A stretch of 64,000 bases of DNA, taken from positions 257,734,001 to 257,798,000 of the forward strand of contig OZ024742.1 in the NCBI GenBank assembly GCA_964016885.1, in the 5' to 3' direction. Shown in pieces: positions 7,091 to 62,598 of this stretch. The notes below the pieces were generated by a model. It was not told the origin of the DNA, made no database searches, and worked only from the letters and a program-made list of their open reading frames with translations. The stretch's first letter is position 1. Every line of letters starts with the position of its first letter. The translations under genes were made by a program, and so were the position numbers. The stretch comes from Eledone cirrhosa (taxonomy: Eukaryota).

Positions 7091-7120
7091 GACAGTAATA
7101 ATACCAACAATAATAATAAT

Positions 7121-10100
7121 GATTTCTTTATTAACCACAAGGGTTTACATAAAGTAAATATTAAGGACAGTACAAGACAATACAGGACGGTACAAATGGG
7201 CATTTCTGCGACAACACTACGGTGACATCGTCCGCCTATGCTGACGCGGATCTTCCGCATCCTAGTTCGCGCGGGACGCCCCTCAACGTCTCCAGTTCGT
7301 GCAGTAATGGCTCGAGAGTCAATACGTACAAGATGGACGAGAGGGGACATCCTTTGCGGACCAAGCGCATATTGTTGAACGGTTCCGAAAGGTGACCGTT
7401 CACTCTCACCATAGAGAATATGTCGCTGTGCATGGCAGCGATCCAGCCTCTGAAGACGGGCCCAAAGCCAGCCGCCTTTACGACTGCCGCTAGGTAACGA
7501 TGGGCGACCCTATCGAGAGCTTTCGACTGATCTAAACTGATCAAGGACCCACCCGTGCCAAGTTCCCTAGCTAACCTCTCTACGATGTATCGCATGAGGT
7601 GGATGTTGTCGTGGATGAATCTGTCGGGAATGGCGCATGTCTGCGCCTCTCACACCAGTCCACCAACGACAAGCACCAACCTCTTTGCTAGCACCTTGGA
7701 CAAAATCTTGAACTCTGTGTTTATTAGAGTTATGGGCCTGAAATTGTCTATGTTATGCCCCTTGTTCGGATCCTTTCTCAGAAGCGCCACCGCTCCTCGG
7801 CTCACAGAGCTGGGAATTCTCCCGTTCTGTTGCCAGTTGCAGTAGACGTAGGCCAAGAGGCCTCCGAACAAGTTTGGTATCTGTACGTAAAGTTCATAGG
7901 GCAGACCATCCAAACCAGGCGATTTACCCCTTGTGCAGCCTGTCATTGTCTCCCTTACTTCAGGGGCTGTTATCAGCTTTTCGCAACACTCCGCCTCAGT
8001 GGCCGAGAGCCGCGGCAGTCCGTCGAGGTAGACACTAAAGTCCATCCCAGATGCGGCCCGCTGCTGCCCCCGAACAGCTGAGCGCAGTGTCGCTGAAAAG
8101 CTTTATACATTTGCCTGGGATCGAGTAGCATGCGCCCGTCGTGATCCATCAAAGACCTCATCGTGGCTTTGTTGCTACGACGCGCCTCCGCCACTCAGGC
8201 AATTTGAACGGCTTTCGTCCCCCCGTGTCTGAGAGCACGCACCCTAGCTCTGACAACGCAGCCTTCGTCCTTTGCATTGAAGAATTGGTCAAGGGCCAAT
8301 TTCGCCGCAAGTAAGTCGGTCGCGATGCCTTTGCTAAGCGCCTCGTCTAATTTTCTAACTAGTTCTCCCTCTGCTCTATTTTTTCTCTATAGCTAAAGCC
8401 TTACTAAACCTAATGGACTCTATTCTAATCGCTCTTTCCAGAGCAAACCACCAGTTGTTGTTGGCGATGGACCCCGTCAACGCTCGCTTAACTAGTTCGC
8501 TAATCCTGTCTCTGTATGCCATGCGCGCTGGCAAGGACGCGTTTAGCTTCAAGTAGCCGGGTCCTCGTCTATGAAGCCTATCAGGCACACAGAAGCCTAA
8601 GTGAAGCACACAGATCATGAATTTGTGTTCCGTGTAGCTGACTATCTTGAATTGTGGACAGCCTATGCTAGACCTATCTATTTCCCTACAAAGTACTCTA
8701 ACTAGATATGATCTGGATGACCCGATGCGGTTTGTCCAAGTCCACATTGGAACATTCGGGAAATCCAATCGGTACCTGTCAGACAGTTCAAAACGCCTGA
8801 GACTAACACTAAAGAGCGGGACGTTCCTAGAAAGGCCTCCAGACGCCGGAAGAGATCAGGCCGCCCTGCTCCTGTTGGGGCATAGACGGCCACTAGCCTG
8901 AAAGCTTTACCGTCTCCGCTGGTCACGTCCAGCACCACGAACTTACCTTCTGGGTCCAGGAAGAAGACCCGTATGGCGAGATCCAAACCTCTCCGAAAAA
9001 CCATAGCAACTCCTCCCTCCGATCCAAGACGGCTGGGAGATGCGTACACATCGTAGCCGCCGAAGATCGGTTTGAAGGCCGATGCTTCGGAGATTCTGGT
9101 CTCGCTGATAGCCACTACATCTATGTTTAGTGATCTGCGGTCGTTGAGCATGTGGACCTGCTTCCATGACGACCCCAAGCCACGCGCATTTATGCTGCCT
9201 ATTCTGAGTGAGGTCAGGTTGAAATGGAGTGGAAAAGATGGGAAAGACCACTTACCTTACTTCTCGTAGAGGAAGGATGGTTTCTCCATCCTTTTCACTT
9301 GAACGTCTGGTGAAGGGACCGTTGAATCGTCCCTTCGGCTGGGCGTCGGCTCTTCTGTGAGTATATTCGAATATACTCTCCTGTCGAGTGTCCCTCCTAG
9401 GTCTGTGAAATCACCCACTGCGTTGGGGAATTTCATTTTAATGTTTGTGTATTGTTTCTGTGCTATTCTTACCAGTCTTATGTTGGTTGGTGATTTGATT
9501 GATGCTGGTATTATGTAGTCGTGCTGTGAGATGTCTGTGAGTTCAGTTATGTAAGTCATTAGTTTCTTGTGTGTATTTATTGCTGTGCATTTCTTTTTCT
9601 GGGGGTGGGGTGTGTTTCTGCTATTTTCTTGTCGTTGTTGCTGGGTTTGTGGTTTTTGTTGTTGTGTTTGCAATGTTGGTGCTTGTGGTGGTGGTGTTGA
9701 AGGTATTGTTGTTGTTGGCGGTGGGGTTGCCGCCGGTGTTGATGATGGTGTTAGTGTGGGTGGTGATGGAGTTGGTGGTGTTGCTGCTGTAAGTCTCTTT
9801 GCAGGAGCCTTTACCCTTGTTTCATTTCTTCCCTCCCTTTTCGAAGGCGTGTTTTTGTGTTTGTGCTTCTGTGTTTGTGCCTTCTTTCGACCTTTTGCCA
9901 TCCATCATCCCTCTCCATGTACGATTCTGTGAGGTTGGGGTGGGGTACGAGCTCGGCTCTTTCACTTGCTCTTGTTGGTGATGTTTGCAGTGGAGTCTCT
10001 GTTGCAGCTGCAGTTGGTATTACTGTTGTTGTTGTTAATACTTCCTCTGCTGCTGCTGTTCTTGATTTCCGTGGCGTGGGTATGGGTGCCACGAACCTAT

Positions 10101-11513
10101 CCTTCCTGCTTGCCGCCTGTCCTGTTGCTGGTAGCAGTGGAGCCGGTTTCGGAAGGAGGGGGGTTTTCTCCTTTCTCAGGCCCTGAGGTGAGTCTTCGAC
10201 CCACAGCAAAAGTATTTCGGGCGTTTTCCCTCAACACTTATGGGAAGTTGAGTGCCGTTATCGAAGTCTATCACATCTGGGATAGCTTCGATGCACTCCT
10301 GGTTGGTTTGAATTAACATCTCAATGGAGGTGCTGACCCAATCTTCTCTTACTTTTTTCTGTACTTGCAGTACAGTTGTTTTGTCCTCGATTCTGACGAG
10401 GACAGACACGGCCAACCAAGAAAGGGCCATCCCGAGGGGGACGTGGGTCAGTTTGACCCTCACAATTGTTTGCCCGCAGTAGGAGGGCACCAACACCATT
10501 TCCTCGCTCCTTAGGGTCACTAATGATTGTGCCTTTGCCTCGTGTGGTGTGGCAAAAAGCACGTCCACGGTGGCATATTTCCATCGAGTGGTTTGAGTTT
10601 TCCGCTGCCACACAGACCCTAAGAATTTTTGTATTTGAGCCTCTGTGGCTCTTTCAACACTACGTGATTTTGTGCTTACTGTACATTACGTGACCGTACA
10701 GTGCTGTTCGGTTTCGAAAGATGTTTCGGCTGCCTTGCAGATTGCTTGGTGTCCAGTTTTCGTCTCCATCTTCTTTGCTTCCTGTAATTCCTCATTTGTT
10801 ATAACGATGGTATCCATGTTCTTTGCGATACCTGCAAACGAGATTGGTTTTTCTTTCTTGTTGTCGTTGTTGTAGTCAGAGCTGCTGTTACTTTTGTGGT
10901 TGCTGCAGGTACTACGACCGCCGCCGCCGCTGTTGCTGTGGTTGTTGTTGTTGTTGCTGCTGTTGTTGTTGCTGTTGCTGCTGCTGCTGTTATTACGGCT
11001 GCTGCTGCTATTCTTCATGACGTCAGACGAATGAATTGGCTTTCCCTATTTACCGCACACATTTTTCGTCGTTGTCGTCGTCGTGGAGAAATGTTCCACG
11101 GTATGCACGTTATCTTGGTGAAAGCTACCAGAAACTATATTTTTCTTTTTCTTCAATGGCGTCGCTTGCGAAAGAGGCGACACCACATTTAGAGAAGGGA
11201 GGAACAGAGACAATCTTCTCTCTGATGTAATGACGATTGAGGAAGAAGAAGACGGAAAGAGTGGGAGTGACTTGTGAACATTATTTTTTGTAGCCATGTT
11301 TTTTTTACGGTTTACAATGAATATTGGGCACACAACCCCAACAAGCGGTTATTTAACCCCGTAGGGCCAAATAATGGGTAAAAAGACCCCTCTCAAGAGG
11401 AGGAGAGTGTTTTTATCTACAACTTGGTTCAAGTTGTAAACAATTTACAATTGTTATAGCGGTTAAAAATTACTATACCTTACAGAGCCGAGCCTCCGTC
11501 AACCATGGCATTC
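7121..11513 (-). mobile_element. Tx1-clade LINE family A, copy 1 (5'-intact, internally deleted, diverged subfamily)
   Basis: Same termini as copies 2 and 3 (gaatgccatggttgacgg ... ggttaataaagaaatc). ORF1 and APE/RT fragments up to YADD. About 1.5 kb deleted after YADD (junction ~7210) and about 90 bp deleted in APE, removing GDWN (~8801). Flanked by (ATT)n on both sides. Confidence 0.95.
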
Positions 11514-11528
11514 AATAATAATAATAAT

Positions 11529-15215: not shown

Positions 15216-15248
<33 letters not shown>

Positions 15249-15470
15249 GAATGCTATGGTTGACGGAGTCTCAGTTCTGTAAGGTATTGTAAACTTTGAA
15301 CACTATAACAATTGTAAATTGTTTAAAACTTTAACGAACTTGTAGACAAAAACACCCTCCTCCTCGTGAGAGGGGTCTTTCTCCCCGTTATTTGGCCATT
15401 CGGGGTTAAATAACTGCTTATTGGGGTTTTGTACCCAATATTTATTTTAAACAAAAAAAAACAAAACAAT

Positions 15471-17580
15471 ATGGCTACGAAAAAGAAATTTCATAGGTCA
15501 CTCCTACTCATTCCGTCTTCTTCTTCCTCAATTATCACTACAGCAGAGAGAAGATTGTCTCTCTCCTTCCCTTCTTTAAATGTGTCTCTCTCCCTCCCTT
15601 CTCTTTCGCAAGCGACGAAAGAAAAGAAAAGTCTCGTGCAAAGCGTGAAAGGTTTCTCCACGACGACGAACGACAGCGACGAAACAGGTGTGCGGGAAAT
15701 ACGAAAACCCAGTTCATTCGTCTGACGTCAGGAATAATAGCAGTAGCAGCCGTAATAACAACAGCAACAGTGACAATGAAAACAACAGTAGCAGCCGCAA
15801 CAACATCACCAGCAGCATAAACAACAACAGCATTAGCAGCAGCAACACCAACAACAACCACAGCAACAGCGGCGGAGGCAGTAGTCGTAGTACCTGCAGC
15901 AACAACAAAAGTAACAGCAGCTCTGACGACAACAACAACAACAGCGGCAAAGAAAAACCAATCTCATTTGCAGGTATTGCGAAAAACTTGGAAACAATCC
16001 TCATAACAAATGAGGAATTAGAGGAAGCGAAGAAGATGGTGACAGAGCCTGGACACCGAGCAATCTGCAAGGCAGCGGAAAAATTTTTCGAAACCCAACA
16101 GCACTGTACGGTCACGTACCGTACAGTAAGTACACAATCCCGTAGGGTGGAAAGAGCCACAGAGGCTCAAATACAAAACGCCTTGGGGTCTGTGTGACAG
16201 CGGAAAACGCACATCACCCGAGGCAAAACATATGCCACCGTAGACGTACTTTTTGCCACACCCCAGGAGGCAAAGGCCCAATCCGTAATGACCCTAAGGA
16301 GCGAGGAAATGGTGTTGGTGCCCTCCTACTGCGGGCAAAACATTGTGAGGGTCAAACTGACCCAAGTCCCCCCCCCCCCCGGGATGGCCCCTTCTTGGCT
16401 GACCGCGTCTGTCCTCGTCGGAATCGAGGACAAAACAACTGTACTGCAAGTACAGAAAAAAAGTAAGAGAAGATTGGGTCGGCCCCTCTATTGAGATGTT
16501 AATCCAAACCAACCAGGTGTGCATCGAAGCTATCCCGGATGTGATAGACTTCGATAACGGCACTCATCTGCCCATAAGTGTTGAGGGAAAACGCCCGAAA
16601 TGCTTTCGCTGTGGACCGAGACTCGCCTCAGGGCCTTCTGCAACGAGAAGACCCTGAGAAAGGAGACAACCCCCCTCCTTCCGAAACCGGCTCCACGGCT
16701 ACCAGCAACAGGACTAGCGGCAACCAGGAACGATAGGTCCGTGGCACCCATACCCACGCCACGGAAATCAAAAACAGCAGCAGCAGTGGAAATATTAACA
16801 ACAACAATAGCAATACCAAATGCAGCTGCAACAGAGACTCCAGTGCAAACATCACCAACAACAAGAAGTGAAAGAGTGGAGCTGGTACCCCTCCCCGACC
16901 TCACAGAATCAGACATGGAGTGTGAGGTGGGAGAGGGATGGCAAAAGGTCGTAAGAAGGCACAAACGCAGAAGCAGGGCATCGTCGCCTTTGAAAAGGGA
17001 GGAAAGAAATGAGAAAAGGGTAAAGTCTACTGCAAAGAGACCCACAGCAGCAACACCACCAACACCATCACCACCCACACTAGCACCACCATCACAACCG
17101 GCGACAACCCCACCACCAACAACACCTTCAACACCACCACCACAAGCACCAACATCGCAAACACAACAACAAAACACACACACCCAGCAACAACGACAAG
17201 AAAATAGCAGAACCACACCCCACCCCCAGAAAAACAAATGCACGGCAATAAATACACACAACAAGAAACTAATGACTTACATAATTGAACACACAGTGAT
17301 TTCACAACACGACTACATAATACCAGCACCAATCAAAACGCCAACTAACATAAGACTGCTAAAAATAGCACAGAAACAATACACAAACATCAAAACGAAA
17401 TTCCCCAACGCAGTTGGTGATTTCAGGGTTTTAGGAGGAACTATCAATCGAAGAGTATATTCAGACATTCTCATAGAAGAGCCGACGACCAGCCAAAGGG
17501 ACGATTCAACGGTCCCTTCACCAGACGATCAAGTGAAAAGGGATGTAAAAAGCATCCCTCCTCTACGAAAAGTACGGTAA
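15471..17580 (+). pseudogene. Tx1-A ORF1 (gag-like, CCHC knuckle), disrupted
   Basis: MATKKKFHR start; fragments in several frames; ends ..LRKVR*. Confidence 0.88.
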
Positions 17581-17615
17581 GTGGTATTTCCCATCTTTTC
17601 CACTCTATTTTAAAC

Positions 17616-20600
17616 ATGACCTCACTCAGAATAGGCAGCATAATTGCGCGTGGCTTGGGGTCGTCATGGAAGCAGGGTCACCTGCTCAACGACCTCAGGT
17701 CACTAAACATAGATGTAGTGGCCATCAGCGAGACCAGAATCTCCGAAGCACGGGCCTTCGCACCGATCTTCGGCGGCTACGATGTGTACGCATCTCCCAG
17801 CCGTCCTGGATCGGGGGGCGGAGTTGCTGTGCTTTTTCGGAGAGGTTTGGATCTCGCCATATGGGCCATCTTCCTGGACCCAGAGGGTAAGCTGGTGGTG
17901 CTGGACGTGACCAGCGGAGACGGCCAAGCTTTCAGGTTAGTGGCCGTCTATGCCCCGACAGGAGCAGGGCGGCCTGATTTCTTCCGGCGTCTGGACACCT
18001 TTCTTGGAACGTCCCGCTCTTTAGTGTTAGTGGGCGACTGGAACGGGATCTTAGATGCACGCTGGGACTGTGTGGGATTAGCGGATAGTGGTGGAGGGTG
18101 CAAGAGCCTCACCAACCTGCTCAGGCGTTTTGAACTGTCTGACAGGTACCGATTGGATTTCCCGAGTGTGCCAATGTGGACTTGAACAAATCGCATAGGA
18201 TCATCCAGATCATATCTAGATAGAGTATTTTGTTGGGAAATAGATAGGTCTAGAATAGGCTGTCCACAATTCAAGATAGTCAGCTACACGGACCACAAAT
18301 TCGTGATCCGTGTGCTTGACTTAGATAGGCTTTATAGACGAGGACCCAGCTACTGGAAGCTAAACGCGTCCTTATCAGCGAGCAAGGCATACAGAGACCG
18401 GATTAGCGAACTAGGTAAGCAGGCGTTGATGGGGGTCATCGTCAACAACAAGTGGTGGTTTGCTCTGAAAAGAGCGATTAGAATAGAATCGATTAGGTTT
18501 AGTAAGGCTTTAGCAATAGAGAAAAATAGAGCAGAGGGAGAACTAGTTAGAAAATTAGACGAGGCGCTTAGCAAAGGTATTGCGACCGACGTGCTTGCGG
18601 CGAAATTGGCCCTTGACCAATTCTTCAATGCAAAGCACGAAGGCTGCGTTGTCAGAGCAAGGGTGCGTGCTCTCAGACACGAGGGGACGAAAGCCGTTCA
18701 ATGGGACCGAGTGGCGGAGGCGCGTAGTGGCAACAAGGCCACGATCCAGTCTTTGGTGGACCACGACGGGCGCATCCTACTCTATCCCGGGCAAATGTGT
18801 GAAGTTCAGCGACACTTCGCTCAGCTGTTCGGGGGCAGCGGTGGGCCGGGTCTAGGGATGGACTTTAGTGTCTACCTCGACGGACTGCCGCGGCTTTCGG
18901 CCACTGAGGCGAGGTGTTGCGAAAAGCCGATAACAGCCGCTGAAGTAAGGGAGGCAATGACTGGCTGCACAAGGGGTAAATCGCCTGGTTTGGATGGTCT
19001 GCCCTATGAACTTTACGTACAGATGCCAGACTTGTTCGGAGGCGTCTTGGCGGACGTCTACTGCAACTGGCAACAGAACGGGAGAATTCCCAGTTCTATG
19101 TGACGAGGAGCGGTGGCACTGCTGAGAAAGGATCCGAACAAGGGGGATAACATAGATAATTTCCGGCCCATAACTCTGCTAAACAAAGAGTTCAAGATTT
19201 TGGACAGGGTGCTAGCAAAGAGGTTGGCGCTTGTCGTTGGTGGACTGGTGGGAGAGGCGCAGACATGTACCATTCCCGATAGATCCATCCACGACAACCT
19301 CCACCTCATGCGATACATCGTAGAGAGGGTAGCTAAGGAACCTGGCACGGGTGGGTCCTTGATCAATTTAGATCAGTCGAAAGCTTTCGATGGGGTCGAC
19401 CATCGTTACCTAGCGGCAGTCCTGATGGCGGCTGGCTTTGGGCCCGTCTTCAGATGCTGGATCGCTGCCATGCACAGCGACATCTGCTCTGTGGTGAGAG
19501 TGAACGGTCACCTGTCGGAACCGTTCAACATCATGCGCTCGGTCTGCCAAGGATGTCCCCTCTCGTCCATCTTGTACGTATTGACTCTCGAGCCATTACT
19601 GCACAAACTGGAGACGTTGGAGGGGCGTCCCGCGCGAACTAGGATTCGGAAGATCCGTGTCAGCATATGCGGACGATGTCACCGTAATGGTGTCGAACGC
19701 CAAACACATCGAGGCGATCGGCACTACACTAAGAGAATACGAAGCGGTGACAGGAGCAATGATCAACCAGGAAAAGTCAGTGGGCCTGCAGCTCGGCACC
19801 TGCAGAGGCAGGTCCATGCCGTCCAACAGCGTCGTCGGATGCTGGACGGACGGACCGGTTAAATTGCTAGGGGTCTGGTTCGGTCCGGACCTCCAGACGG
19901 ACAAAAACTGGGACGAGGTGACGAGCAGGGTGGCTTCGCTCAGCCAGAAATGGGCGGAGAGGAAGCTATCCCGGAAAGGTCGAGCGGAGGTGGCTAACGC
20001 GTACATTGCGTCTGTCATCTGCTACCGCCTGACCGTCGTACCTTGTCCTAAGCCTCGCCTGACTGCGCTGGAGCGTTTGCTCTTTCGCTTTTTGTGGAAG
20101 GGACGCGCTCCGATGGTCAGGCGGTCCATCTGCTGTCAACACCCGCTACGTGGAGGGCTGGGCATGCCGTGGCTGATGATGCGCAGGCACGCGCTCAGGC
20201 TACGACATCTCCACCTCTTCCTCGACGGTGATCAGGTGTGGTCGCCGTTTGCTAGACGCGTATTTCGCCAGCTCGTTTCCTTGACGGAGCTGCAGTCCTG
20301 GGTCAAACGAAGACCGAGAGGGAGCGCCTGGAGACTGGAATGTCTTCAGGCGCTCACAGCCCTCGACCAATCGGGCAATGTGATCGGTGGAAACTCCACC
20401 TCGGCTTTCTATAGAGGATTAAGGGAGGGGAAGAGCGACGACGTACGTGGGGAAAATCTAGGCGTCGACGAAAATCAACTAGCCAATCTCTTCGGAAGAA
20501 CTTTCGGGCCAGGGCCTATGGACAACTTCCAGAAATCTCTGGCCTGGCAGTGCTACCGAGGAGCCTTGCCAGTTCGGCATAAACTCTACAGGCATGGAGG

Positions 20601-21033
20601 TGCCCTCAACCGGGCATGTCCGAGATGCGCGCAGGGCGACGAAACCGTCCTGCACGCACTCGTCCAGTGTCCGAAAATTGCTGACTTGTGGGTTTATGTC
20701 GAACACCTGCTGTCGCGTTTAGGACGGATCCGGCTATCATCTGAGTCCATCGTGAGGATTGCCCCGCCCTCCTCCTTTAGCCGGGAAGAGCAGGCAGTTT
20801 TTATCTGCCTGGTGGCCATGGCGAAAGAGATAGTATGGTGGACACGTTTGAAAGGGCTGAAGAAGAGCACTTACCTCTTCGGTGATGCTCTGATTGACTT
20901 TTTCAAATTTCATTTGAAAAGGAAAATCAGAGTAGAGAGGGAAGTGCTCTCTTCCCAGCATTTTGTTGAAAGATGGGTGAGAGAAGCAAGAATGGCCCGA
21001 GTGAATGGGCCTACTCTGAGTATATATCTGTAA
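17616..21033 (+). pseudogene. Tx1-A ORF2 (APE + RT + CCHC), disrupted
   Basis: Fragments 17616-18185, 18303-19103, 19113-~19620 and 19657-21033 match the intact ORF2 at 52796-56209. Confidence 0.95.
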
Positions 21034-21281
21034 ATTAAAGGTGGTAAACTAGGAGAGGGCACTTGCCTTGGTGGTCAGGGTCATTGTGGCTTTTTATTGG
21101 GCTTTCTCCACAAATGTCCCTCCGAAGTCTCCCCCCTATTGGGGAATTTTTCATTGTTATTTTTTGTTACATCCTCTGTTTTCGTTTTTTACACGCAGAA
21201 ATGCCCATATGTACCGTCCTGTATTGTCCTGCACTGTCCTTAATGTCTACTTTATGTAAACCCTTGTGGTTAATAAAGAAA

Positions 21282-21322
<41 letters not shown>

Positions 21323-28259: not shown

Positions 28260-31200
28260 TTGGTAGCTGGACTCACACAATTTTGCTGGTAAGTTTCTGT
28301 CAATTTATTTACAAAAAACAGAAATTCTTGTTTAAAAAAAACACATTGTTTTGTTGATTAACCACTAGGCTGAATTGACAGCTGGGTGGCAATCTCATTT
28401 TTCGACCCCACAGGGGCGAAATTTTAATTTGAAATTAATTTGAAAACTGTTAAAAATATTTAATATTTTGCCATCAACAACGGCAAGCGTACAAAGAACG
28501 TTAGCGAACGTTGAAGAAGGACAAATAAAAGAAGAAATAGACTTTAACGTTGCTAAGAGCTTTGCCTGTATCGATGTAGTTGACAACAAGGTTTTGTGTA
28601 ACGAAAGTGAATTAGACAACACAAGCAAAATTGAACCACAGAGTGTGCAACAGACACCAAAATCAACAGAGAAAACAATTGGCACAACTACAAACGGAAA
28701 AATCGACAACCACCACAAAAACAACAATAACGCCAAAAAAATAACTTTTACAAAAATAGTCACAAATAATAATAACGTTACCTCTAACTCCGCATGTATT
28801 GGCGTCACCATGGAACCCAATATGGACAACAAAAATAAAAACAAGATCGAACCACGCAGTGTACAACAGACACCAAAAATAACAGAAAACATCAGAAATT
28901 AAAACCATTGACACAACAAAAACGGAAAAACCGACAACCACAACAACAATAACAACAACACCAAAAAACCTTTGCGCAAACAGTCATCAAGACACAAGTG
29001 TTCAACGATCTCGATATCTCCAATGCGAAACAGATGCTCTCTGAAGCAAAGGAGTTTATCACTTTCGGTGAAAACGGTGGATTTCAGATAAACTCACCCC
29101 CAGAAATTTGTCTGGAAGCATTTCGAAGGACAATTACCTTCAGAACTGTTTCAAATGAAACAAAACGATCAGCATTCCTCAGTCAAGGGGAAATTGAGGC
29201 AACCTTGAAGGAGATATTGCCAGACATTGACTTTATGCAGAGGGCCAAACACTACGGGACTATTTCGGTACTCCTCAAAAGCGAGGCACAAAGATACTCA
29301 GTAACGCCAATACTGTCAAAAAATACACCTTGTTCCCTACATACCTGGGGAAAAAGGACACAAAAGATCAGAATTACAAACATACCATCAAATATTAATA
29401 TTTGGTAGATATCTCAGGATTTTGGAGGAGAGAAAAGACACCATTCTCCCCATCAAAAAGTCAACCAGACACACGTTGTCTGGTACAAATTTAGAGATTC
29501 TTGTGAAAATGAGCCCGGAAAGAATCTCCAGAATACAAGAAAAAGTGCTAGTGGACAACAACAGCCACATAAGCATTTCAGTTGAGGGATGAAAACCACA
29601 TAGCTTTCGTTGCAATAGCACCACACACCTAAAGGCCTCCTGCCCTTTACAAATACGCTCAATCAAAATAATACAAAAGAAAACACTGTTACCAACACCA
29701 ACGCCAAAACAAATACAACCACAACAACAAAAACACACGAAATAAGCAAACACACCTAAACTAACAGCCACTCAACCAACAGCAACAGAAAAACCACAGG
29801 CAACACCCCTGAAGAACACAAGCCCATCCCATCCCACTCCATCAAACACTACCACAAACACACACACCGAAACACCAGCACCACACAATATACCCCTACC
29901 CCACCCTCCTGACGATGATTATTCACCAACAGATGAGGCTGCTTCTCCTTCTTTAGGTAAATGCAAAACAAAAAAAAAGAGACACCACAAAACCCCCAAA
30001 ATTCCAATCACCAACACCAACACACATCCACAGACACAAACAACAACACAAACAACACCACAATCAAACATCCCCCTACCAGCAAAACCAACACCAACAC
30101 CACCCCAAACACAAGCACCCACCATAAAAAGAAAACTCCCGAACGAGCAACAAACAATAACAACACAACACAAACAACAATACGCATACATCGACACAAA
30201 CAACAAGAGTTTGCAGGAGGTCAACTCCCAAAACTCCAAGTTGGAGACGGAGGGGAAAACTTTCGTCAAAGTAGAATCGTGTCCACACCTTAAACTTATA
30301 AGGGTTTTTATGGAGACCTATAGTGACCTGAAAAATAAATTTTCGCAGGACGTGGGAAACGCTTGCCAGAAACCCATCAACCGCGTTCTTTTAACATGTT
30401 TCCCCTCCCCACCCAACACCCCCTCCAGCACCCAAATGGAGATTGAACAACCCGATCTCCAGGAAACGAAAAGGTAATTGCACCTTTCGTCCCTTTTCTC
30501 CAACTATTCTCCACCAACATGACTCGCCCAGGGATGCCATGGAAAGAGGGCCAACTTTTAAACGACTTTAGGTCACACGGTATGGATGTGATAGCCATCA
30601 CCGAGTCCAGGATTCACAACAGGCAGCAACTAACCCCATATTCAATGACATTGAGAGCTACGCATCTCTCTGTCAGCCAGGAGGTGGAGGGGGGTGGCTG
30701 TCATGTTTCGGAAAAACTTGGACGTCGAAGTACAGCAAGTACACTTGGACTCGGAGGGTAGACTGGAAGTCCTAGACGTGAACAACACGGGGGAGCCTTC
30801 AGACTGGTGGCCGTTTATGCCCCAACCGGGCAATCGCAATCGCGGCCAGACTTCTTTAAGCGTCTAGAGTCTTTTCCGGGAACGTCTGGCTCCTTACTTT
30901 AAGTGGGGGACTGGAATGGTATCCGAGATGCACAATGGGACTATGTGGGAGCATGTCCCAGTACAGGGGGGTGCAACAACCTAAAAATCTAATCGGCCAA
31001 TTCCAACTGGCCGATAGATATCGACTAGATTTCCCGACTGCACCACAGGGGGCGTCAGCAAACCGCAGCGGGACATCTAGATCGTATTTAGATAGGTTAT
31101 TCAATAGAGAGAAGGATAAGAAGATGTTAAGCTGTCCACAAAGCACTTGGTTGCCTATTCAGACCACAAACTAGTCATCTGCATAGTCAACCGTGATACA

Positions 31201-52519: not shown

Positions 52520-52795
52520 GTAATAATAATAATGATTTCTTTATATACCACAAGGGTTTACATAAAGTAGACATTAAGGACAGTGCAGGACAATGCAGGA
52601 CGGTACAAATGGGCATTTCTGCGTGTAAAAAAACAAAAACAGAGGATGTAACAAAAATAACAATGAAAATAACAATGAAAAATTCCCCAATAGGGGGGAG
52701 ACTTCGGAGGGACATTTGTGGAGAAAGCCCAGTAAAAAGCCACAATGACCCTGACCACCAAGGCAAGTGCCCTCTCCCAGTTTTCCACCTTTAGT

Positions 52796-55700
52796 TTACA
52801 GATATATACTCAGAGTCGGCCCATTCACTCGGGCCATTCTTGCTTCTCTCACCCATCTTTCAACAAAATGCTGGGAAGAGAGCACTTCCTTCTCTACTCT
52901 GATTTTCCTTTTCAAATGAAATTTGAAAAAGTCAATCAGAGCATCACCGAAGAGGTAAGTGCTCGTCTTCAGCCCTTTCAAACGTGTCCACCATACTATC
53001 TCTTTCGCCATGGCCACCAGACAGATAAAAACTGCCTGCCCTTCCCGGCTAAAGGAGGAGGGCGGGGCAATCCTCACGATAGACTCAGATGATAGCTGGA
53101 TCCGTCCTAAACGCGACAGCAGGTGTTCGACATAAACCCACAAGTCAGCAATTTTCGGACACTGGACGAGTGCGTGCAGGACGGTTTCGTCGCCCTGCGC
53201 GCATCTCGGACATGCCCGGCTGACGGCACCTCCATGCCTGTAGAGTTTATCCCGAACTGGCAAGGCTCCTCGGTAGCACTGCCAGGCCAGAGATTTCTGG
53301 AAGTTGTCCATAGGCCCTGGCCCGAAAGTTCTTCCGAAGAGATTGGCTAGTTGATTTTCGTCGACGCCTAGAGTTTCCCCAAGTACGTCGTCGCTCTTCC
53401 CCTCCACTAATCCTCTATAGAACGCCGAGTTTCCACCGATCACATTGCCCGATTGGTCGAGGGCTGTGAGCGCCTGAAGACATTCCAGTCTCCAGGCGCT
53501 CCCTCTCGGTCTTCGCTTGACCCAGGACTGCAGCTCCGTCAAGGAAACGAGCTGGGGAAAAACGCGTCTAGCAAACGGCGACCACACCTGATCACCGTCG
53601 AGGAAGAGGTGCAGATGTCGTAGCCTGAGCGCGTGCCTGCGCATCATCAGCCACGGCATGCCCAGCCCTCCACGTAGCGGGTGTTGACAACAGATGGACC
53701 GCCTGACCATCGGAGCACGTCCCTTCCACAAAAAGCGAAAGAGCAAACGCTCCAGCGCAGTCAGGCGAGGCTTAGGACAAGGTACGACGGTTAGGCGGTA
53801 GCAGATGACAGACGCGATGTACGCGTTAGCCACCTCCGCTCGACCTTTCAGGGATAGCTTCCTCTCCGCCCATTTCTGGGTGAGAGAAGCCACCCTGCTC
53901 GTCACCTCGTCCCAGTTTTTGTCCGTCTGGAGGTCCGGACCGAACCAGACCCCTAGCAATTTAACCGGTCCGTCCGTCCAGCGCCCGACGACGCTGTTGG
54001 ACGGCATGGACCTGCCTCTCCAGGTGCCGAGCTGCAGGCCCACTGACTTTTCCTGGTTGATCATTGCTCCTGTCACCGCTTCGTATTCTCTTAGTGTAGT
54101 GCCGATCGCCTCGATGTGTTTGGCGTTCGACACCACTACGGTGACATCGTCCGCATATGCTGACACGGATCTTCCGCATCCTAGTTCGCGCGGGACTCCC
54201 CTCAACGTCTCCAGTTTGTGCAGTAATGGCTCGAGAGTCAATACGTACAAGAGGGACGAGAGGGGACATCCTTGGCGGACCGAGCGCATGATGTTGAACG
54301 GTTCCGACAGGTGACCGTTCACTCTCACCACAGAGCAGATGTCGCTGTGCATGGCAGCGATCCAGCCTCTGAAGACGGGCCCAAAGCCAGCCGCCCTCAG
54401 GACTGCCGCTAGGTAACGATGGTCGACCCTATCGAAAGCTTTCGACTGATCTAAATTGATCAAGGACCCACCCGTGCCAGGTTCCCTAGCTACCCTCTCT
54501 ACGATGTATCGCATGAGGTGGAGGTTGTCGTGGATGGATCTGTCGGGAATGGCGCATGTCTGCGCCTCTCCCACCAGACCACCAACGACAAGCGCCAACC
54601 TCTTTGCTAGCACCTTGGCCAAAATCTTAAACTCTGTGTTTAGCAGAGTTATGGGCCGGAAATTGTCTATGTTATCCCCCTTGTTCGGATCCTTTCTCAG
54701 CAGTGCCACCGCTCCTCGGCTCACAGAACTGGGAATTCTCCCGTTCTGTTGCCAGTTGCAGTAGACGTCCGCCAAGAGGCCTCCGAACAAGTCTGGCATC
54801 TGTACGTAAAGTTCATAGGGCAGACCATCCAAACCAGGCGATTTACCCCTTGTGCAGCCAGTCATTGCCTCCCGTACTTCAGCGGCTGTTATCGGCTTTT
54901 CGCAACACCTCGCCTCAGTGGCCGAGAGCCGCGGCAGCCCGTCGAGGTAGAGACTAAAGTCCATCCCTCTACCCGGCCCCCCGCTGCCCCCGAACAGCTG
55001 AGCGAAGTGTCGCTGAAAAGCTTCACACATTTGCCCGGGATCGAGTAGCATGCGCCCGTCGTGGTCCACCAAAGACCGGATCGTGGCTTTGTTGCCACGA
55101 CGCGCCTCCGCCACTCGGGCCCATTGAACGGCTTTCGTCCCCTCGTGTCTGAGAGCACGCACCCTAGCTCTGACAACGCAGCCTTCGTGCTTTGCATTGA
55201 AGAATTGGTCAAGGGCTAATTTCGCCGCAAGCACGTCGGTCGCAATGCCTTTGCTAAGCGCCTCGTCTAATTTTCTAACTAGTTCTCCCTCTGCTCTATT
55301 TTTCTCTATTGCTAAAGCCTTACTAAACCTAATCGATTCTATTCTAATCGCTCTTTTCAGAGCAAACCACCACTTGTTGTTGACGATGGCCCCCGTCAAC
55401 GCCCGCTTAACTAGTTCGCTAATCCGGTCTCTGTAGGCCTTGCGCGCTGGTAAGGACGCGTTTAGCTTGCAGTAGCCGGGTCCTCGTCTATGAAGCCTAT
55501 CTAAGTCAAGCACACAGGTCACGAATTTGTGGTCCGTGTAGCTGACTATCTTGAATTGTGGACAGCCTATGCTAGACCTATCTATTTCCCTACAAAATAC
55601 TCTATCTAGATATGATCTGGATGACCCTATGCGGTTTGTCCAAGTCCACATTGGCACATTCGGGAAATCCAATCGGTACCTGTCAGACAGTTCAAAACGC

Positions 55701-56209
55701 CTGAGCAGGTTGGTGAGGCTCTTGCACCCTCCACCCCTATCCGCTAATCCCACACAGTCCCAGCGTGCATCTAAGATCCCGTTCCAGTCGCCCACTAACA
55801 CTAAAGAGCGGGACGTTCCAAGAAAGGTCTCCAGACGCCGGAAGAAATCAGGCCGCCCTGCTCCTGTCGGGGCATAGACGGCCACTAGCCTGAAAGATTG
55901 CCCGTCTCCGCTGGTCACGTCCAGCACCACCAGCTTACCCTCTGGGTCCAGGAAGATGGCCCGTATGGCGAGATCCAAACCTCTCCGAAAAAGTACAGCA
56001 ACTCCTCCACCGGATCCAGGACGGCTGGGAGATGCGTACACATCGTAGCCGCCGAAGATCGGTGCGAAGGCCCGTGCTTCGGAGATTCTGGTCTCGCTGA
56101 TGGCCACTACATCTATGTTTAGTGACCTGAGGTCGTTGAGCAGGTGACCCTGCTTCCATGACGACCCCAAGCCACGCGCATTTATGCTGCCTATTCTGAG
56201 TGAGGTCAT
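52796..56209 (-). CDS. Tx1 ORF2 protein: APE endonuclease, reverse transcriptase, C-terminal CCHC finger (1137 aa, open)
   Basis: SINARGL, ISETR, VYAP, GDWN, YLDRVF, TDHK (APE); KSPGLDG, FRPITLLN, LDQSKAFDRV, RQGCPLS, YADD (RT); CPRC..ETVLHALVQC. Confidence 0.97.
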   Translation of the reverse strand: MTSLRIGSINARGLGSSWKQGHLLNDLRSLNIDVVAISETRISEARAFAPIFGGYDVYASPSRPGSGGGVAVLFRRGLDLAIRAIFLDPEGKLVVLDVTSGDGQSFRLVAVYAPTGAGRPDFFRRLETFLGTSRSLVLVGDWNGILDARWDCVGLADRGGGCKSLTNLLRRFELSDRYRLDFPNVPMWTWTNRIGSSRSYLDRVFCREIDRSSIGCPQFKIVSYTDHKFVTCVLDLDRLHRRGPGYCKLNASLPARKAYRDRISELVKRALTGAIVNNKWWFALKRAIRIESIRFSKALAIEKNRAEGELVRKLDEALSKGIATDVLAAKLALDQFFNAKHEGCVVRARVRALRHEGTKAVQWARVAEARRGNKATIRSLVDHDGRMLLDPGQMCEAFQRHFAQLFGGSGGPGRGMDFSLYLDGLPRLSATEARCCEKPITAAEVREAMTGCTRGKSPGLDGLPYELYVQMPDLFGGLLADVYCNWQQNGRIPSSVSRGAVALLRKDPNKGDNIDNFRPITLLNTEFKILAKVLAKRLALVVGGLVGEAQTCAIPDRSIHDNLHLMRYIVERVAREPGTGGSLINLDQSKAFDRVDHRYLAAVLRAAGFGPVFRGWIAAMHSDICSVVRVNGHLSEPFNIMRSVRQGCPLSSLLYVLTLEPLLHKLETLRGVPRELGCGRSVSAYADDVTVVVSNAKHIEAIGTTLREYEAVTGAMINQEKSVGLQLGTWRGRSMPSNSVVGRWTDGPVKLLGVWFGPDLQTDKNWDEVTSRVASLTQKWAERKLSLKGRAEVANAYIASVICYRLTVVPCPKPRLTALERLLFRFLWKGRAPMVRRSICCQHPLRGGLGMPWLMMRRHALRLRHLHLFLDGDQVWSPFARRVFPQLVSLTELQSWVKRRPRGSAWRLECLQALTALDQSGNVIGGNSAFYRGLVEGKSDDVLGETLGVDENQLANLFGRTFGPGPMDNFQKSLAWQCYRGALPVRDKLYRHGGAVSRACPRCAQGDETVLHALVQCPKIADLWVYVEHLLSRLGRIQLSSESIVRIAPPSSFSREGQAVFICLVAMAKEIVWWTRLKGLKTSTYLFGDALIDFFKFHLKRKIRVEKEVLSSQHFVERWVREARMARVNGPTLSIYL

Positions 56210-56244
56210 GTTTAAAATAGAGTGGAAAAGATGGGAAAGACCAC

Positions 56245-58348
56245 TTACCGTATTTTTGGTAGAGGAGGGATGGTTTTTACATCCCTTTTCACTTGATCGT
56301 CTGGTGAAGGGACCGTTGAATCGTCCCTTCGGCTGGTCGTCGGCTCTTCTAAGAGAATGTCTGAATATACTCTTCGATTGATAGTTCCTCCTAGGTCCCT
56401 GAAATCACCAACTGCTTTGGGGAATTTCGTTTTAATGTTTGTGTATTGTTTCTGTGCTATTTTTAGCAGTCTTATGTTAGTTGGCGTTTTGCTTGGTGCT
56501 GGTATTATGTAGTCCTGTTGTGAAATGTCTGTGTGTTCAATTATGTAAGTCATTAGTTTCTTGTTGTGTGCATTTATTGCCGTGCATTTGTTTTTCTGGG
56601 GGTGGCGTGTGGTTCTGCTATTTTCTTGTCGTTGTTGCTGGGTGTGTGTGTTTTGTTGTTGTGTTTGCGATGTTGGTGCTTGTGGTGGTGGTGTTGAAGG
56701 TGTTGTTGGCGGTGGGGTTGTCGCCGGTGGTGATGGTGTTGCTAGTGTGGATGGTGATGGTGTTGGTGGTGTTGCTGCTGTGGGTCTCTTTGCAGTAGAC
56801 TTTACCCTTTTCTCATTTCTTTCCTCGTTTTTCAAAGGCGACGATGCGCTGCTTCTGCGTTTGTGCCTTCTTACGACATGTTGCCATCCCTCTCCCACCT
56901 CACACTCCATGTCTGATTCTGTGAGGTCGGGGAGGGGTACCAGCTCCACTCTTTCACTTGTTGTTGTTGGTGATGTTTGCACTGGAGTCTCTGTTGCAGC
57001 TGCATTTGGTATTGCTATTGTTGTTGTTAATATTTCCACTGCTGCTGCTGTTTTTGATTTCCGTGGCGTGGGTATGGGTGCCACGGACCTATCGTTCCTG
57101 GTTGCCGCTTGTCCTGTTGCTGGTAGCCGTAGAGCCGGTTTCGGAAGGAGGGGTTTTCTCCTTTCTCGGGGTCTTCTCGTTGCAGAAGGCCCTGAGTTGA
57201 GTCTTCGATCCACAGCGAAAGCATTTCGGGCGTTTTCCCTCAACACATATGGGCAGTTGAGTGCCGTTATCGAGGTCTATCATATCCGGGATAGCTTCGA
57301 TGCACTCCTGGTTGGTTTGGATTAGCATCTCAATGGAGGTGCCGACCCAATCTTCTCTTACTTTTTTCTGTACTTGCAGTACAGTTGTTTTGTCCTCGAT
57401 TCCGACGAGTACAGACGCGGCCAGCCAAGAAGGGGCCATTCCGGGGGGGACGTGGGCCAGTTTGACCCTCACAATTTTTTGCCCGCAGTAGGAGGGCACC
57501 AACACCATTTCCTCGCTCCTTAGGGTCACTACGGATTGGGCCTTTGCCTCCTGGGGTGTGGCAAAAAGTACTTCTACGGTGGCATATTTTTTGCCTCGGG
57601 TGATGTGCGTTTTCCGCTGCCACACAGACCCCAAGGCTTTTTGTATTTGGGCCTCTGTGGCTCTTTCCACCCTACGGGATTTTGTACTTACTGTACGGTA
57701 CGTGACCGTACAGTGCTGTTGGGTTTCGAAAAAATTTTCCGCTGCCTTGCAGATTGCTCGGTGTCCATTCTTTGTCACCATCTTCTTCGCTTCCTCTAAT
57801 TCCTCATTTGTTATGAGGATTGTTTCCAAGTTTTTCGCAATACCTGCAAATGAGATTGGTTTTTCTTTGCTGCTGTTGCTGTTGTTGTCGTCGTCAGAGC
57901 TGCTGTTACTTTTGTTGTTGCTGCAGGTACTACGACTACTGCCTTCGCCGCTGTTGCTGTGGTTGTTGTTGGTGTTGCTGCTGCTAATGCTGTTGTTGTT
58001 TATGCTGCTGGTGATGCTGTTGCGGCTGCTACTGTTGTTTTCATTGTCACTGTTGCTGTTGTTATTACGGTTGCTACTGCTATTATTCCTGACGTCAGAC
58101 GAATGAACTGGGTTTTCGTATTTCCCGCACACCTGTTTCGTCGCTGTCGTCGTCGTCGTGGAGAAACCTTGTACGCTTTGCACGAGACTTTTCTTTTCTT
58201 TCGTCGCTTGCGAAAGAGAAGGGAGGGAGAGAGACACATTTAAAGAAGGGAGGGAGAGAGACAATCTTCTCTCTGCTGTAGTGATGATTGAGGAAGAAGA
58301 AGACGGAATGAGTGGGAGTGACCTATGCCAATTCTTTTTCGTAGCCAT
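56245..58348 (-). pseudogene. Tx1 ORF1 with one frameshift
   Basis: ORFs 57089-58348 and 56245-57246 join if the C-run at ~57150 has 6 C as in copies 1 and 2 (it has 4 here). Knuckle CFRCGSKTQLRAFC (H in copy 1). Confidence 0.9.
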
Positions 58349-58584
58349 GTTGTTTTTTTTTGTTTAAAATAAATAGTGGGTACAAAACCCCAATAAGCAG
58401 ATATTTAACCCCGAAGGGCCAAATAACGGGCAGAAAGACCCCTCTCACGAGGAGGAGGGTGTTTTTGTCTACAAGTTGGTCTAAGTTTTAAACAATTTAC
58501 AATTGTTTTAGCGTTCAAAATTTACAGTACCTTACAGAGCCGAGCCTCCGTCAACCATAGCATTCAATAATAATAATAATAATA

Positions 58585-61500
58585 ACAATTTAAAAACAAT
58601 AACAATGATAATAACAATTTAAAAAAACAACAAAAAAAACCCCGTGACCAAGAAATACCGGGATGGCGGCCGGCGGGGAATAGCCGTTTCTCTAGGGGAG
58701 AACGACCCCTCTAGTCTTGGTTGACACTCGTTCTAGAAGTGGTAACACGAAATGATTACCCCTTGGCTGATAAGGATAAAACGCGACAAAATAAAGTAAA
58801 TGTCTAATGATAAAATCTCATACCGGATCGGCCGTCACCCGGGTAAAAAAGGGCCGCGTCCCTCAGAGAGGAACCAGACTGGGGTCGAAAAATCAGCTAA
58901 TGGTTCAAACCTTCCCATCACTTCGGAGCTGGAGACCTCCCATAACCGGAATACTCCTACTGTTGGCCCTCCATGCTCACCACCAAGAAATCCAAAGAAA
59001 AAGAGAGAAAAATGGTCAAGGGAAGATAATAAAGAAGTCCTTGAGGCTTTCTACACTGCCATGTACTACCCATCAAATACATCGAATACAGAACAGACAT
59101 ATATCAACTGGAAAAAGAAACATCCCGAAAACAGAGGCTATACTGACAGTAACAAACTAGCCAATATACGAAGAAATATTGTAAGAAAAAAGTTACTAAC
59201 TGATATAGAAATTGATCAGATCAAGCTATTAGCACAAAGTCAGCGAAGGGAAAATGAAACATGTGTCAGTGAAAACGAGGTAAACTGTAACACTACGAAT
59301 CCCAGGGTTGGGGCGGAATCACTGGCAACAGAAGAAATTAAAGAAAGGATCGAAAAAGTGGAGGGAGTGCATGCCCAGGATGAAACTCCAAATGAAAATA
59401 ATGAGATCGTAAATGATAAAGAAATGAATGAGAATGAACTTGCCAACTTAAAGGATGAAATTATGATCGAATGGATGAAAATGAAAGAATCTGACATGGG
59501 GCAACGAGACACCCTCCCTAAGATCCAGAACTCCAAACAGAGCCAAAAGATAATACACAAGACTAACATAATTTTCAAAAACATTATCATCACAAACAAA
59601 CTAAACATTACTGATTTAAATCATCTCTATTATGCATAGGCTAAAGTCACAACTCACTTATGTGGAGTGAAGATGAAAAAACAAAGGAATTCCCACAAGA
59701 AATCTACTTGGCAAGAGAACATCAATCGCCAAATAAACCTTCTCCGATCTGACATAGAAATTTTAACAAACTATAAAGTAGGTGAACATGTTAAACAAAC
59801 TAAACTTAGAAAATTGAAAAAAAAGTACAGTATAAAATCAACATGTGACATAGACATGCTGATAGAAATAATCAAGCAAAAAGTGTCGGCCAAAGCTGCT
59901 CGTATAAGGCGCTTTGAAAAACGATCTAGATTCTATAAGGACAATAATATGTTCAAAAACAAGCAAAGAAACTTCTACAGAAAAATTGGTAAGTCAACAA
60001 TAACTGCTAAATCAATACCACCCAAGGAGGAAGTGCAAGAATTCTGGGAAAAGATCTGGGCCGAAGAAAAAGTTCATAACATACATGCATGCACCATGGA
60101 TAGACAGACACATGAAAGATACAGCTCACCTTGAGGAACAAACATGGGAAAATATAACAGTTGAACAGTTGCGCTTGGCTCTAAAAAAAAACAGCAAATG
60201 GAAATCCCCAGGAAAAGACAAAATACAAAACTTTTGAATAAATGCCTTCACAGAGTCTCATGAGCTGTTAGCCCAACTTTACAATGAAATAGTTAAGGAG
60301 CCAGAAAAGATACCATCATGGCTAGTTAACGGCATTACATTCCTGCTACCGAAGAATGATGAGACAAACAATCCCGAAAATTTCAGACCGATAACTTGCT
60401 TGACTACAATGTATAACATTTTAACATCAGTCCTAACTGAATACACATATGGCCACCTGATAACAAATGATCTATTTCCCATTGAGCAGAAAGGGTGTAA
60501 ACGAGGCTCATATGGCTGTAAGGATCAGCTTCTGGTTAACAAAATGATACTGGAAGATTGTCATAATAGACACAAAAATCTATCGATTGCTTGGATAGAT
60601 TATAAAAAAGCAGACGATAGTTTGCCACACAGTTGGATTGAAAAATGTTTAGAGATTTTCCAAATATACCCCGTTGTCAGGAGGTTTTTGTCATTCAGTA
60701 TGAAGACATGGAAAACGACACTCCTTTTGAATAGTGAAACAAAATCACTGGAAGCTGGAGAAGTTAATATTAATTGTGGAATTTTTCAGGGTGACTCTTT
60801 ATCACCTCTTTTATTCTGCATCGCACTTATACCATTATGTAAAATGCTCAATGAAACAAAACATGGATATAAAGTCTATGACAAAACCATTAATCACCTG
60901 TTCTACATGGATGACCTGAAACTATTTGCAAAAAATGATGAACAATTGCAAGGGCTATTATCCACTATGGAGCAGTTCAGTGATGACATTAAAATGGAGT
61001 TTGGACTAGATAAATGCGCCAAAGCAACGTTCACCAGAGGAAAGCTGCTGAAGAGTTCAGACATTAATCTTGATCGGGGGAACGTGATGAGAGAACTTAA
61101 TCAAGAAAAAACTTACAAATATCTAGGTGTTTGTGAAGGAGGCGGAATCAAGCACTCGACAATGAGGGAAAGGATAAGGAAGGAATGTTACCGCAGGGTA
61201 AGAGCAATCTTAAGAACGGAATTGAATGCAAGGAATAGGATCGATGCCATAAACACGCTTGCCATACCAGTAGTAACCTACAGTTACAATGTCATCAACT
61301 GGTCAAGCACAGAGATCCGTAGGCTCGATACAAAAATTCGAAAATTCTTAACCATGCACAGAATGCATCACCCTAAGGCAGATATAGATAGAATATATCT
61401 CCCTAGGAAAGAAGGAGGACGTGGGTTAATCCAGTTAGACATTGCGTTGAAAACTGCAACAATTGGATTATCTACATATCTAAGGGAATCACATGATTGG

Positions 61501-62598
61501 ATGATCAAACTCGTTTTGAAACACGAAAGCATCAAAAGATCATATTCCATTACAAAAGATGCACAAAGATACAGTAATGGACTACAAATTTCAGAAGTCC
61601 CATTTAATGCTGAAATGGAAAACACAGAAAAAGCAAAGCAGGTAAAAGTAACTGCAAAGAAAAAACTGCTACAGAAACTGACTAAGAAATGGCAAGAAAA
61701 GCCTCTGTATGGAAAATACCCAGAGCGAGCTAACAATCCTGATGTTGACAAAACTTTAACCCATCAGTGGTTGGCATCCTCTGGACTGAAATCGGAGACT
61801 GAAGGACTGATTATATCAGCACAAGATCAGTGTCTGCCAACAAAAAATTACCAAGCCAACATAATAAAAAATGGGTGCAGCCCATTATACCGTGTATGAA
61901 AAAAAACAACCAGAGACCATTGACCATATAATTTCAACGTGCAGTCCTATAGCTCCAACCGAATACCTAAACAGGCAGGACAGAGCTGCACAATACATAC
62001 ATTGGATAATGTGTAAGCATTTTGACCTGCCCCATCAAAAGAATTGGTGGGAGCATCAACCACCTCCCATACTTGAAAAAGATCACATCTCAATCTTGTG
62101 GAACTTTAGCATCCAAACAGACCGAAAAATAGATGCAAATAGACCTGATATAATATTGAAGGACTTTCAAAAGATGGTATGCCTGCTAATTGATATGTCT
62201 GTTCCAATAGACAAGAATGTATCTATAAAAACATTTGAAAAATTGAGCAAGTATAAGGACCTGGAGATAGAAATTGGAAAAATGTGGAAATTGAGAACTA
62301 AAACAATACCAGTGGTTGTAGGCGCTCTGGGAATGATATCTAAGGGGTCTAATGATTACATATCGCAAATCCCAGGAAACCCGCGTATAGGAGAAATACA
62401 AAAGATAGTACTAATGGGAACTGCCCATATACTAAGGAAGATTCTGTCAATATAAGTACATCACAAGTCTAAACACTAAAGATGCATGTGTGAATATGTA
62501 TGTTCTTTCTTGAACATGGCGGACCTTGTTGTCTCTTGAGGTCACTGGTTGTGACTTGGTGATAACTCGTATGAACATAAAGCAAGATAAATGCAACT
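58585..62598 (+). mobile_element. Dong/R4-type RLE retrotransposon family B (full length, few disablements)
   Basis: ORF pieces 58800-62455 with WKSPG.D, FRPITCL, QKGC, GIFQGDSLSP, FYMDDLKLF, ETIDHIISTC, NRPDII..IDMS..K..KYKDL and PVVVGALG. (AAT)n tail at 62599-62619. Confidence 0.95.

Follow-up and report, generated by a model that had tools for sequence, protein, structure and literature searches.

Family-A elements and the ORF1/ORF2 junction

The window analyzed here, a 64,000-nt stretch of the Eledone cirrhosa genome (NCBI GenBank assembly GCA_964016885.1, contig OZ024742.1, positions 257,734,001 to 257,798,000 of the forward strand), carries three copies of a retrotransposon without long terminal repeats (LTRs), also known as a long interspersed nuclear element (LINE), that we refer to as family A, together with the junction of a relative, family B (Table 1). 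In family A, a 5' splice-site-like motif lies across the stop codon of the first open reading frame (ORF1), and a short pyrimidine-rich spacer separates it from the second (ORF2). An initial interpretation, hereafter the sequence-only reading, proposed that this donor and an AG within ORF2 bound a 52-53-nt intron whose removal fuses the two frames. Comparison with sister families indicates that the donor is conserved but has no conserved partner acceptor, which points to ORF2 being translated from its own ATG.

Intact family-A copies encode an ORF1 of 698 residues and an ORF2 of 1139 residues, the latter with the Pfam domains PF03372, PF00078, and PF13966 and with human L1 ORF2p as its nearest solved structure (E 1e-51). 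The features of the L1 group are present, namely an ORF2 with an APE endonuclease, a reverse transcriptase (RT), and a C-terminal CCHC motif, an upstream ORF1, and a 3' AATAAA. ORF1 gave nothing significant against Pfam; its knuckle follows the pattern CX2CX4HX4C, and its Atlas matches (0.90-0.93, a lead only) are to zf-CCHC, RBD_ZCCHC3, and RRM clusters. The Tx1 clade is distinguished by an ORF1 with RRM-type domains and a CCHC knuckle and by a preference for insertion into repeats such as microsatellites. Both hallmarks are seen here, the first as the knuckle and, as a lead, the RRM/ZCCHC3-like neighbors, and the second as the (ATT)n that flanks the window copy and separates tandem A and E units and the (CTAT)n in family G. 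The elements themselves are ordinary L1/Tx1-type LINEs, for which we provisionally use the label Tx1 rather than L1. Family A is very young, with 40 of 40 scored matches 100% identical over 251 nt. An Rfam search returned zero matches, and the only named protein homologous to the start of ORF2 belongs to Octopus sinensis.

The sequence features on which the fusion proposal was built are present as described. The donor over the ORF1 stop reads CG/GTAAGT in the two better-preserved copies and AG/GTAAGT in the decayed one (the slash marks the splice point), the pyrimidine spacer is free of AG, and the first AG falls 53, 53, and 52 nt past the donor, in ORF2 codon 5 and in frame with a phase-2 donor. 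For family B, the GTAATT donor and the deletion in the ORF2 5' end were likewise found in the window copy, but GTAATT is specific to that copy and most other B copies aligned have GTAAGT.

Table 1. Features of the family-A elements and of the family-B junction in the window.
Feature	Position	Strand	Remarks
Full-length family-A L1/Tx1-type non-LTR retrotransposon	52523..58582	-	98% over 6069 nt to an intact unit (L034) by blastn; (ATT)n on both flanks
ORF1	56245..58348	-	698 residues with CCHC knuckle in intact copies; two frames in the window copy
Conserved 5' splice-site-like motif CG/GTAAGT	56243..56250	-	G+1 = 56248; ORF1 stop TAA = 56247-56245
Inter-ORF spacer, 35 nt	56210..56244	-	74% pyrimidine; without ATG or AG; 3' end is the ORF2 start context
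ORF2 (APE endonuclease, RT, zf-RVT/CCHC)	52796..56209	-	ATG = 56209-56207
Proposed acceptor CAG (Leu4-Arg5 codons)	56196..56198	-	53 nt from donor; not conserved across families
Second in-frame YAG/GT at Leu27-Arg28	56127..56129	-	In 16/17 representatives; use of the site would remove the Asn of the GSxN motif
AATAAA in A-rich 3' part of ORF1	56573..56578	-	330 nt 5' of donor; candidate cryptic poly(A) signal
ATTAAA in 3' part of ORF1	56436-56431	-	Candidate cryptic poly(A) signal
Second family-A copy	15232..21294	+	Donor G+1 = 17577; CAG end = 17629
Older, decayed family-A copy	7110..11528	-	Donor 9255; CAG end 9204; CTG replaces ATG
Family-B junction	30474..30522	+	Donor G+1 = 30474, ATG = 30520; GTAATT and ORF2 5' deletion in the window copy

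Conservation of the donor motif

Relatives were gathered from the 3.0-Gb genome by their ORF2 protein or motif, without the donor as a criterion, and 17, later 19, real copies were taken as representatives of ∼13 families (A1, A2, B1, B2, C, N, D, E, E2, E3, F, G1, G2, H, I, J, K, L, and M). Full ORF2 proteins from families A, E, F, and G share 69-87% identity. Family F (295 junction copies, intact ORF2) and family E (333 copies, intact ORFs) are both young. Two B2 copies and one K copy that were read at length carry ORF2 frameshifts and may be non-autonomous, so that they would have lower weight in the acceptor count given below. Searches for close relatives outside the genome found none in viral or metagenome contigs and yielded nine distant loci only. 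Protein searches of the genome itself with P0024, P0067, and P0047 returned nothing at thresholds that were overly strict, and the canonical LQETH-type pattern had two matches.

On the tree of the 19 representatives, parsimony assigned no changes to G-1, G+1, T+2, and T+6 and a single change to G+5, as compared to 4-7 changes at each of positions -9 to -3 and 3-7 at +7 to +16, with seven at +8. Positions +1, +5, and +6, which are free of stop or amino-acid constraint, changed once in total versus a mean of 3.1 changes per fourfold site; resampling gave P = 0.010-0.024 for so little change, against a small reference set (10-19 sites) in which one of ten fourfold sites was likewise invariant. 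The motif agrees with the 5' splice-site consensus of a U2-type intron, and with an ad hoc U1-pairing score it ranked first or second of the 277-314 GT sites in each of six near-full-length elements.

The sequence-only reading had cautioned that a donor overlapping an in-frame TAA is automatically in phase 2, so that only the acceptor phase and conservation count as independent evidence. This caveat can be answered, as the motif outlasts both stop-codon switches and a frame shift. The variants GTAAGT, GTAGGT, GTGAGT, and GTAATT retain the motif with TAA, TAG, and TGA stops. The open frame of family E, 642 codons long, closes with GGT AAG TAA, which displaces the stop by 4 nt and places the donor in phase 1. 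Among older E-type copies, GTAAGT was kept in six of eight while spacer identity fell to 75-81%. The ORF1 C-terminal residue is Arg in 15 of 17 representatives, and the last ORF1 codon ends in G in 16 of 16 phase-2 representatives, with AGA at least as frequent as AGG in three of the four ORF1s counted. These comparisons support the donor as a genuine conserved signal, beyond chance and beyond a by-product of TAA.

Donor-like sequences (GTGAGT or GTAAGG) were also seen 149-183 nt 5' of the ORF1 ATG in the 5' untranslated regions (UTRs) of families A, E, G, and K (L034, L220, L366, and L367; around 58520-58535 on the minus strand in the window). They may represent a further U1 site close to the promoter, or else an element of the promoter. 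Joining of the 5' UTR donor to an AG ahead of the ORF2 ATG was rejected, such an AG being present in only 6 of 19 representatives.

The proposed acceptor and the ORF2 start

In contrast to the donor, the acceptor is not conserved: many sister families, the young F and E among them, have lost it, have it out of frame, or carry it only 31-39 nt from the donor. Among 17 representatives, five (A1, A2, B1, C, and N) have an in-frame YAG as their first AG, at 52-54 nt; the first AG is an in-frame CAG merely 31-37 nt away in three (G1, G2, and L), an in-frame AAG at one inherited Arg codon in five (F, where it lies at 39 nt, M, K, J, and H), and out of frame in four (B2, D, E, and I). In seven of the 17 (B2, F, H, I, J, K, and M), the 100 nt past the donor hold no in-frame YAG. 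A YAG conserved in a constant frame across functional relatives, as a U2-type intron at 56248-56196 would have, was not found. Length alone does not exclude the proposed intron, since human introns of 37-65 nt (PMC4463651) and fly introns mostly of 40-80 nt (bioRxiv 10.1101/2023.12.29.573658) have been described; the available parts of PMC6279123 and PMC7931591 give no minimum intron length for octopods. In family G (L253 and L298), a branch-point-like TTTTAAC, a T-tract, and a CAG 7 nt before the ORF2 ATG are found, 34-37 nt from the donor.

The ORF2 ATG is invariant across all 19 representatives and sits in a Kozak-like context (C-1 in 19, A-3 in 18, and G+4 in 17 of 19). Such constraint would be unexpected if the ATG were intronic. 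Within family A, GT was intact in 69, AG in 70, and ATG in 70 of the 71 copies scored, with neither splice signal better kept than the start codon. The CTG that replaces the ATG in the decayed window copy is present as reported, but it is an isolated change and was discarded as proof that the ATG is dispensable.

The spacers of the 19 representatives are 21-48 nt long and 73-81% pyrimidine, and none contains an ATG. In most representatives, the ORF1 end is predicted to pair with the spacer in a local hairpin, with z < -1.5 in 7 of 19 and a mean z of -1.3 relative to flank shuffles; families F, K, and L fold less stably than their own shuffles. In family C (L282, L182, and L147), a perfect 9-bp inverted repeat pairs the entire donor with spacer sequence (z -4.0). 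Sequestration of the donor by structure was considered and is not supported by the folding predictions.

Search for spliced copies

A spliced RNA would have the same 3' end as the unspliced RNA and should be reverse-copied too, so that splicing of a LINE would be expected to leave intron-less retrocopies; spliced forms of human L1, whose proteins favor their own RNA, make up ∼2% of full-length copies (PMC5860796). When one pair of anchors was used for both forms, the unspliced gap was found in 3,075 family-A copies and precise loss of the 53-nt segment in none; the retroposed copies for which the sequence-only reading suggested a search were not found in this family. A short gap was present in three family-A copies, none of which is a precise loss. 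Fifteen family-A copies with a non-T base at +2 carry point or small changes and, in two cases, long deletions with microhomology and no AG. In family E, no spliced copies were found versus 333 unspliced, and in family G none were found, with a genome-wide count of unspliced G copies lacking for comparison. No copies joined at the Leu27-Arg28 YAG/GT were found in the genome, and no joining at other AG sites was seen among the 15 and 23 donor-variant copies listed.

By the rule of three, spliced templates in family A lie below about 0.1%, assuming independent copies, an assumption weakened by the tandem arrays. The lack of spliced copies provides the strongest argument that ORF2p is not mainly produced through splicing. 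A spliced RNA shielded from reverse transcription would still be compatible with a count of zero, and low-level splicing may occur in families A, B1, C, N, and E. Searches for an ORF1-ORF2 fusion protein, by ORF1 against long proteins and by the ORF1 C-terminus against short proteins (both weak), found none. The 15 joints listed from four runs of contigs of unrecorded kind (112 more are unlisted) do not match the proposed intron and carry no evidential weight.

Interpretation of the conserved donor

With a conserved donor and no conserved partner acceptor, we tentatively favor, at somewhat less than an even chance, that ORF2 starts at its own ATG and that the donor binds U1 snRNP, a small nuclear ribonucleoprotein, without productive splicing of a short intron. 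ORF2 would then be translated from the unspliced RNA by reinitiation at its ATG across the short, ATG-free spacer, and the 53-nt segment would stay in the RNA while the donor recruits U1 snRNP. Bound U1 could shield this intronless 6-kb RNA against premature cleavage and polyadenylation, or it could serve in nuclear handling. The pyrimidine tract may aid U1 recruitment or may pair with the purine-rich ORF1 end; a U-rich enhancer of the TIA-1 type is known to help U1 recruitment. Poly(A) hexamers occur 74-345 nt 5' of the donor in five of six elements.

Several observations weigh against this interpretation. The 1.6 kb 5' of the family G donor contain no poly(A) hexamer and ORF2 is almost free of such hexamers, and therefore a need for protection is not evident. 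The evidence for donor conservation itself has limits: besides the small reference set noted above, the representatives were hand-picked (majority or intact types) and located by a donor-shaped regular expression, and a wider tally found the full motif in 197 of 233 distinct junction contexts. Of the 36 contexts without it, nine were fetched as mutants and most of the others are single-copy changes. The divergent single copies L356 and L358 lack the donor motif. The stop-spanning hairpin, predicted in many families, and the in-frame YAGs of some families, both taken up below, also favor other explanations.

Foremost among these is a translation signal, in which the pyrimidine spacer pairs with the purine-rich end of ORF1, the resulting hairpin has the stop within or next to its loop and aids termination-reinitiation, and the likeness to a donor is secondary. 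The predicted folding fits this idea, as do the structure near the SART1 stop-start site and L1 termination-reinitiation across a spacer (PMC5972666). On the other hand, the unstable folds of F, K, and L do not, the pairing register varies by family, A1 and L have uncompensated A-2 to C changes, and neither the invariant G+5 and T+6 nor retention of the motif after the stop shift in family E is explained. The hairpin is the main rival or an additional layer; as the whole explanation it is unlikely. The motif could instead be inherited without current function, given that a C-terminal Arg codon and a stop codon already make most of a donor. All three stops are TRR, the families represent one clade in one genome, and the distant L1 relatives L233 and L234 lack the donor; yet the G-ending final codon despite the frequency of AGA, and the fixed non-coding +5 and +6 next to a +8 that changed seven times, make this the least probable of the explanations weighed.

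Two further alternatives invoke splicing proper. In the original proposal, ORF2p is made chiefly by way of an in-frame ORF1-ORF2 fusion that results from removal of a 52-54-nt intron; this would hold for families A, B1, C, N, and E at least. The strong donor and the permissive intron lengths known from humans and flies favor it, and 13 of 17 representatives have their first AG, of whatever kind, in frame, although five of these are the inherited AAG and three are only 31-37 nt away. Moreover, when only YAGs past 45 nt are considered, 7 of 19 representatives (A1, A2, B1, C, N, E, and E2) have the first one in frame, at 52-56 nt, and the family E site fits the shifted phase. These seven YAGs sit at three different ORF2 codons, and by a rough, uncomputed estimate three lineages of about ten is close to chance; neither the acceptor nor its phase is shown to exceed chance. 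Together with the families that lack an in-frame YAG, the invariant ATG and context that would be intronic in family A, and the absence of spliced copies and of a fused protein, this renders the fusion intron unproven and, as a general mechanism or as the main source of ORF2p, highly improbable. Alternatively, the donor could be joined to a more distant acceptor, such as the one at Leu27-Arg28 (108-130 nt away). The resulting RNA would be dedicated to ORF1 or bound for decay and would tune the ratio of ORF1 to ORF2. The codons CTY AGG are retained at the synonymous level in 16 of 17 representatives and could form a second acceptor, although other synonymous columns are invariant too. Use of this site would cost ORF2 an Asn that L1 work has found to be required for endonuclease activity. 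A Copia gag RNA offers a precedent (PMC5580714), and an O. sinensis gene model has ORF2 residues 30-90 as an internal segment that fits the use of such sites. Set against this are the lack of joined copies, 3' UTRs without a shared acceptor, and a product that is in frame in most families but not in E, and we consider it very unlikely. That same O. sinensis model (P0006, annotated as tectonic-3-like) carries the segment, 64% identical, near its N-terminus, as a possible exonization or an annotation artifact.

A combined and more speculative possibility, which we rate as quite unlikely, is that this LINE clade uses the spliceosome as a switch at the ORF1 stop: bound U1 would maintain full-length RNA, and families A, B1, C, N, and E would sometimes remove a 52-56-nt intron to give a translated polyprotein mRNA that is kept from reverse transcription. 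If true, this would be a splicing-made gag-pol-like fusion in a LINE. Escape from HUSH via the donor was also considered and ruled out, as intron protection did not require a 5' splice site in the experiments covered by the available part of PMC8770142.

Relation to known systems

The organization seen here, a bicistronic ORF1 and ORF2 (APE-RT-CCHC) with a short spacer, is shared with human L1 and with the L1-Tx1 elements of Octopus vulgaris, in which 13 recently active families have been reported (PMC13282606). The present spacers are 21-48 nt and pyrimidine-rich, whereas those of rat, mouse, and human L1 are A-rich and ∼60 nt, and rat L1 reportedly yields no fusion product (PMC2241872). ORF2p is likely produced from bicistronic RNA by the same route as in SART1 UAAUG coupling and L1 termination-reinitiation (PMC5972666); unlike SART1, there is no stop-start overlap here, and a strong conserved CAAC-ATG-G context follows the pyrimidine spacer. 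Two distant L1 relatives with a readable junction (L233 and L234) have a TGATG overlap and no donor. The conserved donor over the ORF1 stop is a difference between the present families and their L1-group relatives. Splice signals within an L1-group element are known from the human L1 SpIREs, but their donors are in the 5' UTR and their spliced copies account for the ∼2% given above (PMC5860796), whereas here the donor is at the ORF1 end and a spliced copy was not found.

By analogy, the closest precedent for a non-splicing donor would be the Arabidopsis Ty1/Copia element EVD, in which U1 at a conserved donor at the end of gag suppresses premature termination of the unspliced RNA and mutation of the donor leads to premature termination (PMC5580714). 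In both systems, a retroelement carries a conserved U1-type donor where its structural gene ends. They differ in that EVD, an LTR element, has only one ORF, and its gag stop is created by a proven intron, whereas the LINE ORF1 has its own stop and no conserved acceptor and its donor is known from sequence alone. Retroviral donors have roles similar to that of the EVD donor. In the open-access literature (Repbase reports were not covered), we found no account of a LINE with a conserved donor at its ORF1 stop, and the word "splice" is absent from the available text of PMC11203168.

How LINEs produce ORF2p and maintain the integrity of a 6-kb intronless RNA is only partly understood. That the donor outlasts changes of stop codon and a shift in frame suggests selection for an interaction with the splicing machinery of the host where ORF1 meets ORF2. 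The young families offer hundreds to thousands of near-identical junction copies, together with natural variation in acceptor, phase, and spacer length.

Other observations

Full-length elements also occur in head-to-tail arrays of up to 10 units (G000 C2:110322077-110352712, C1:423365197-423418069, and C1:4225289-4255732), with periods of ∼6.06 (family A), 5.84, and 5.9 kb and with a microsatellite between A and between E units. Units of family F (L364) are separated by a short tandem repeat of ∼60 nt, with no microsatellite, and the family F copies listed gather near the ends of contigs C1-C3. Elsewhere in the window, decayed RT-bearing retroelement ORFs of a different type are found on the plus strand at 11785-15148, 45895-46491, 58800-62455, and 63141-63941.

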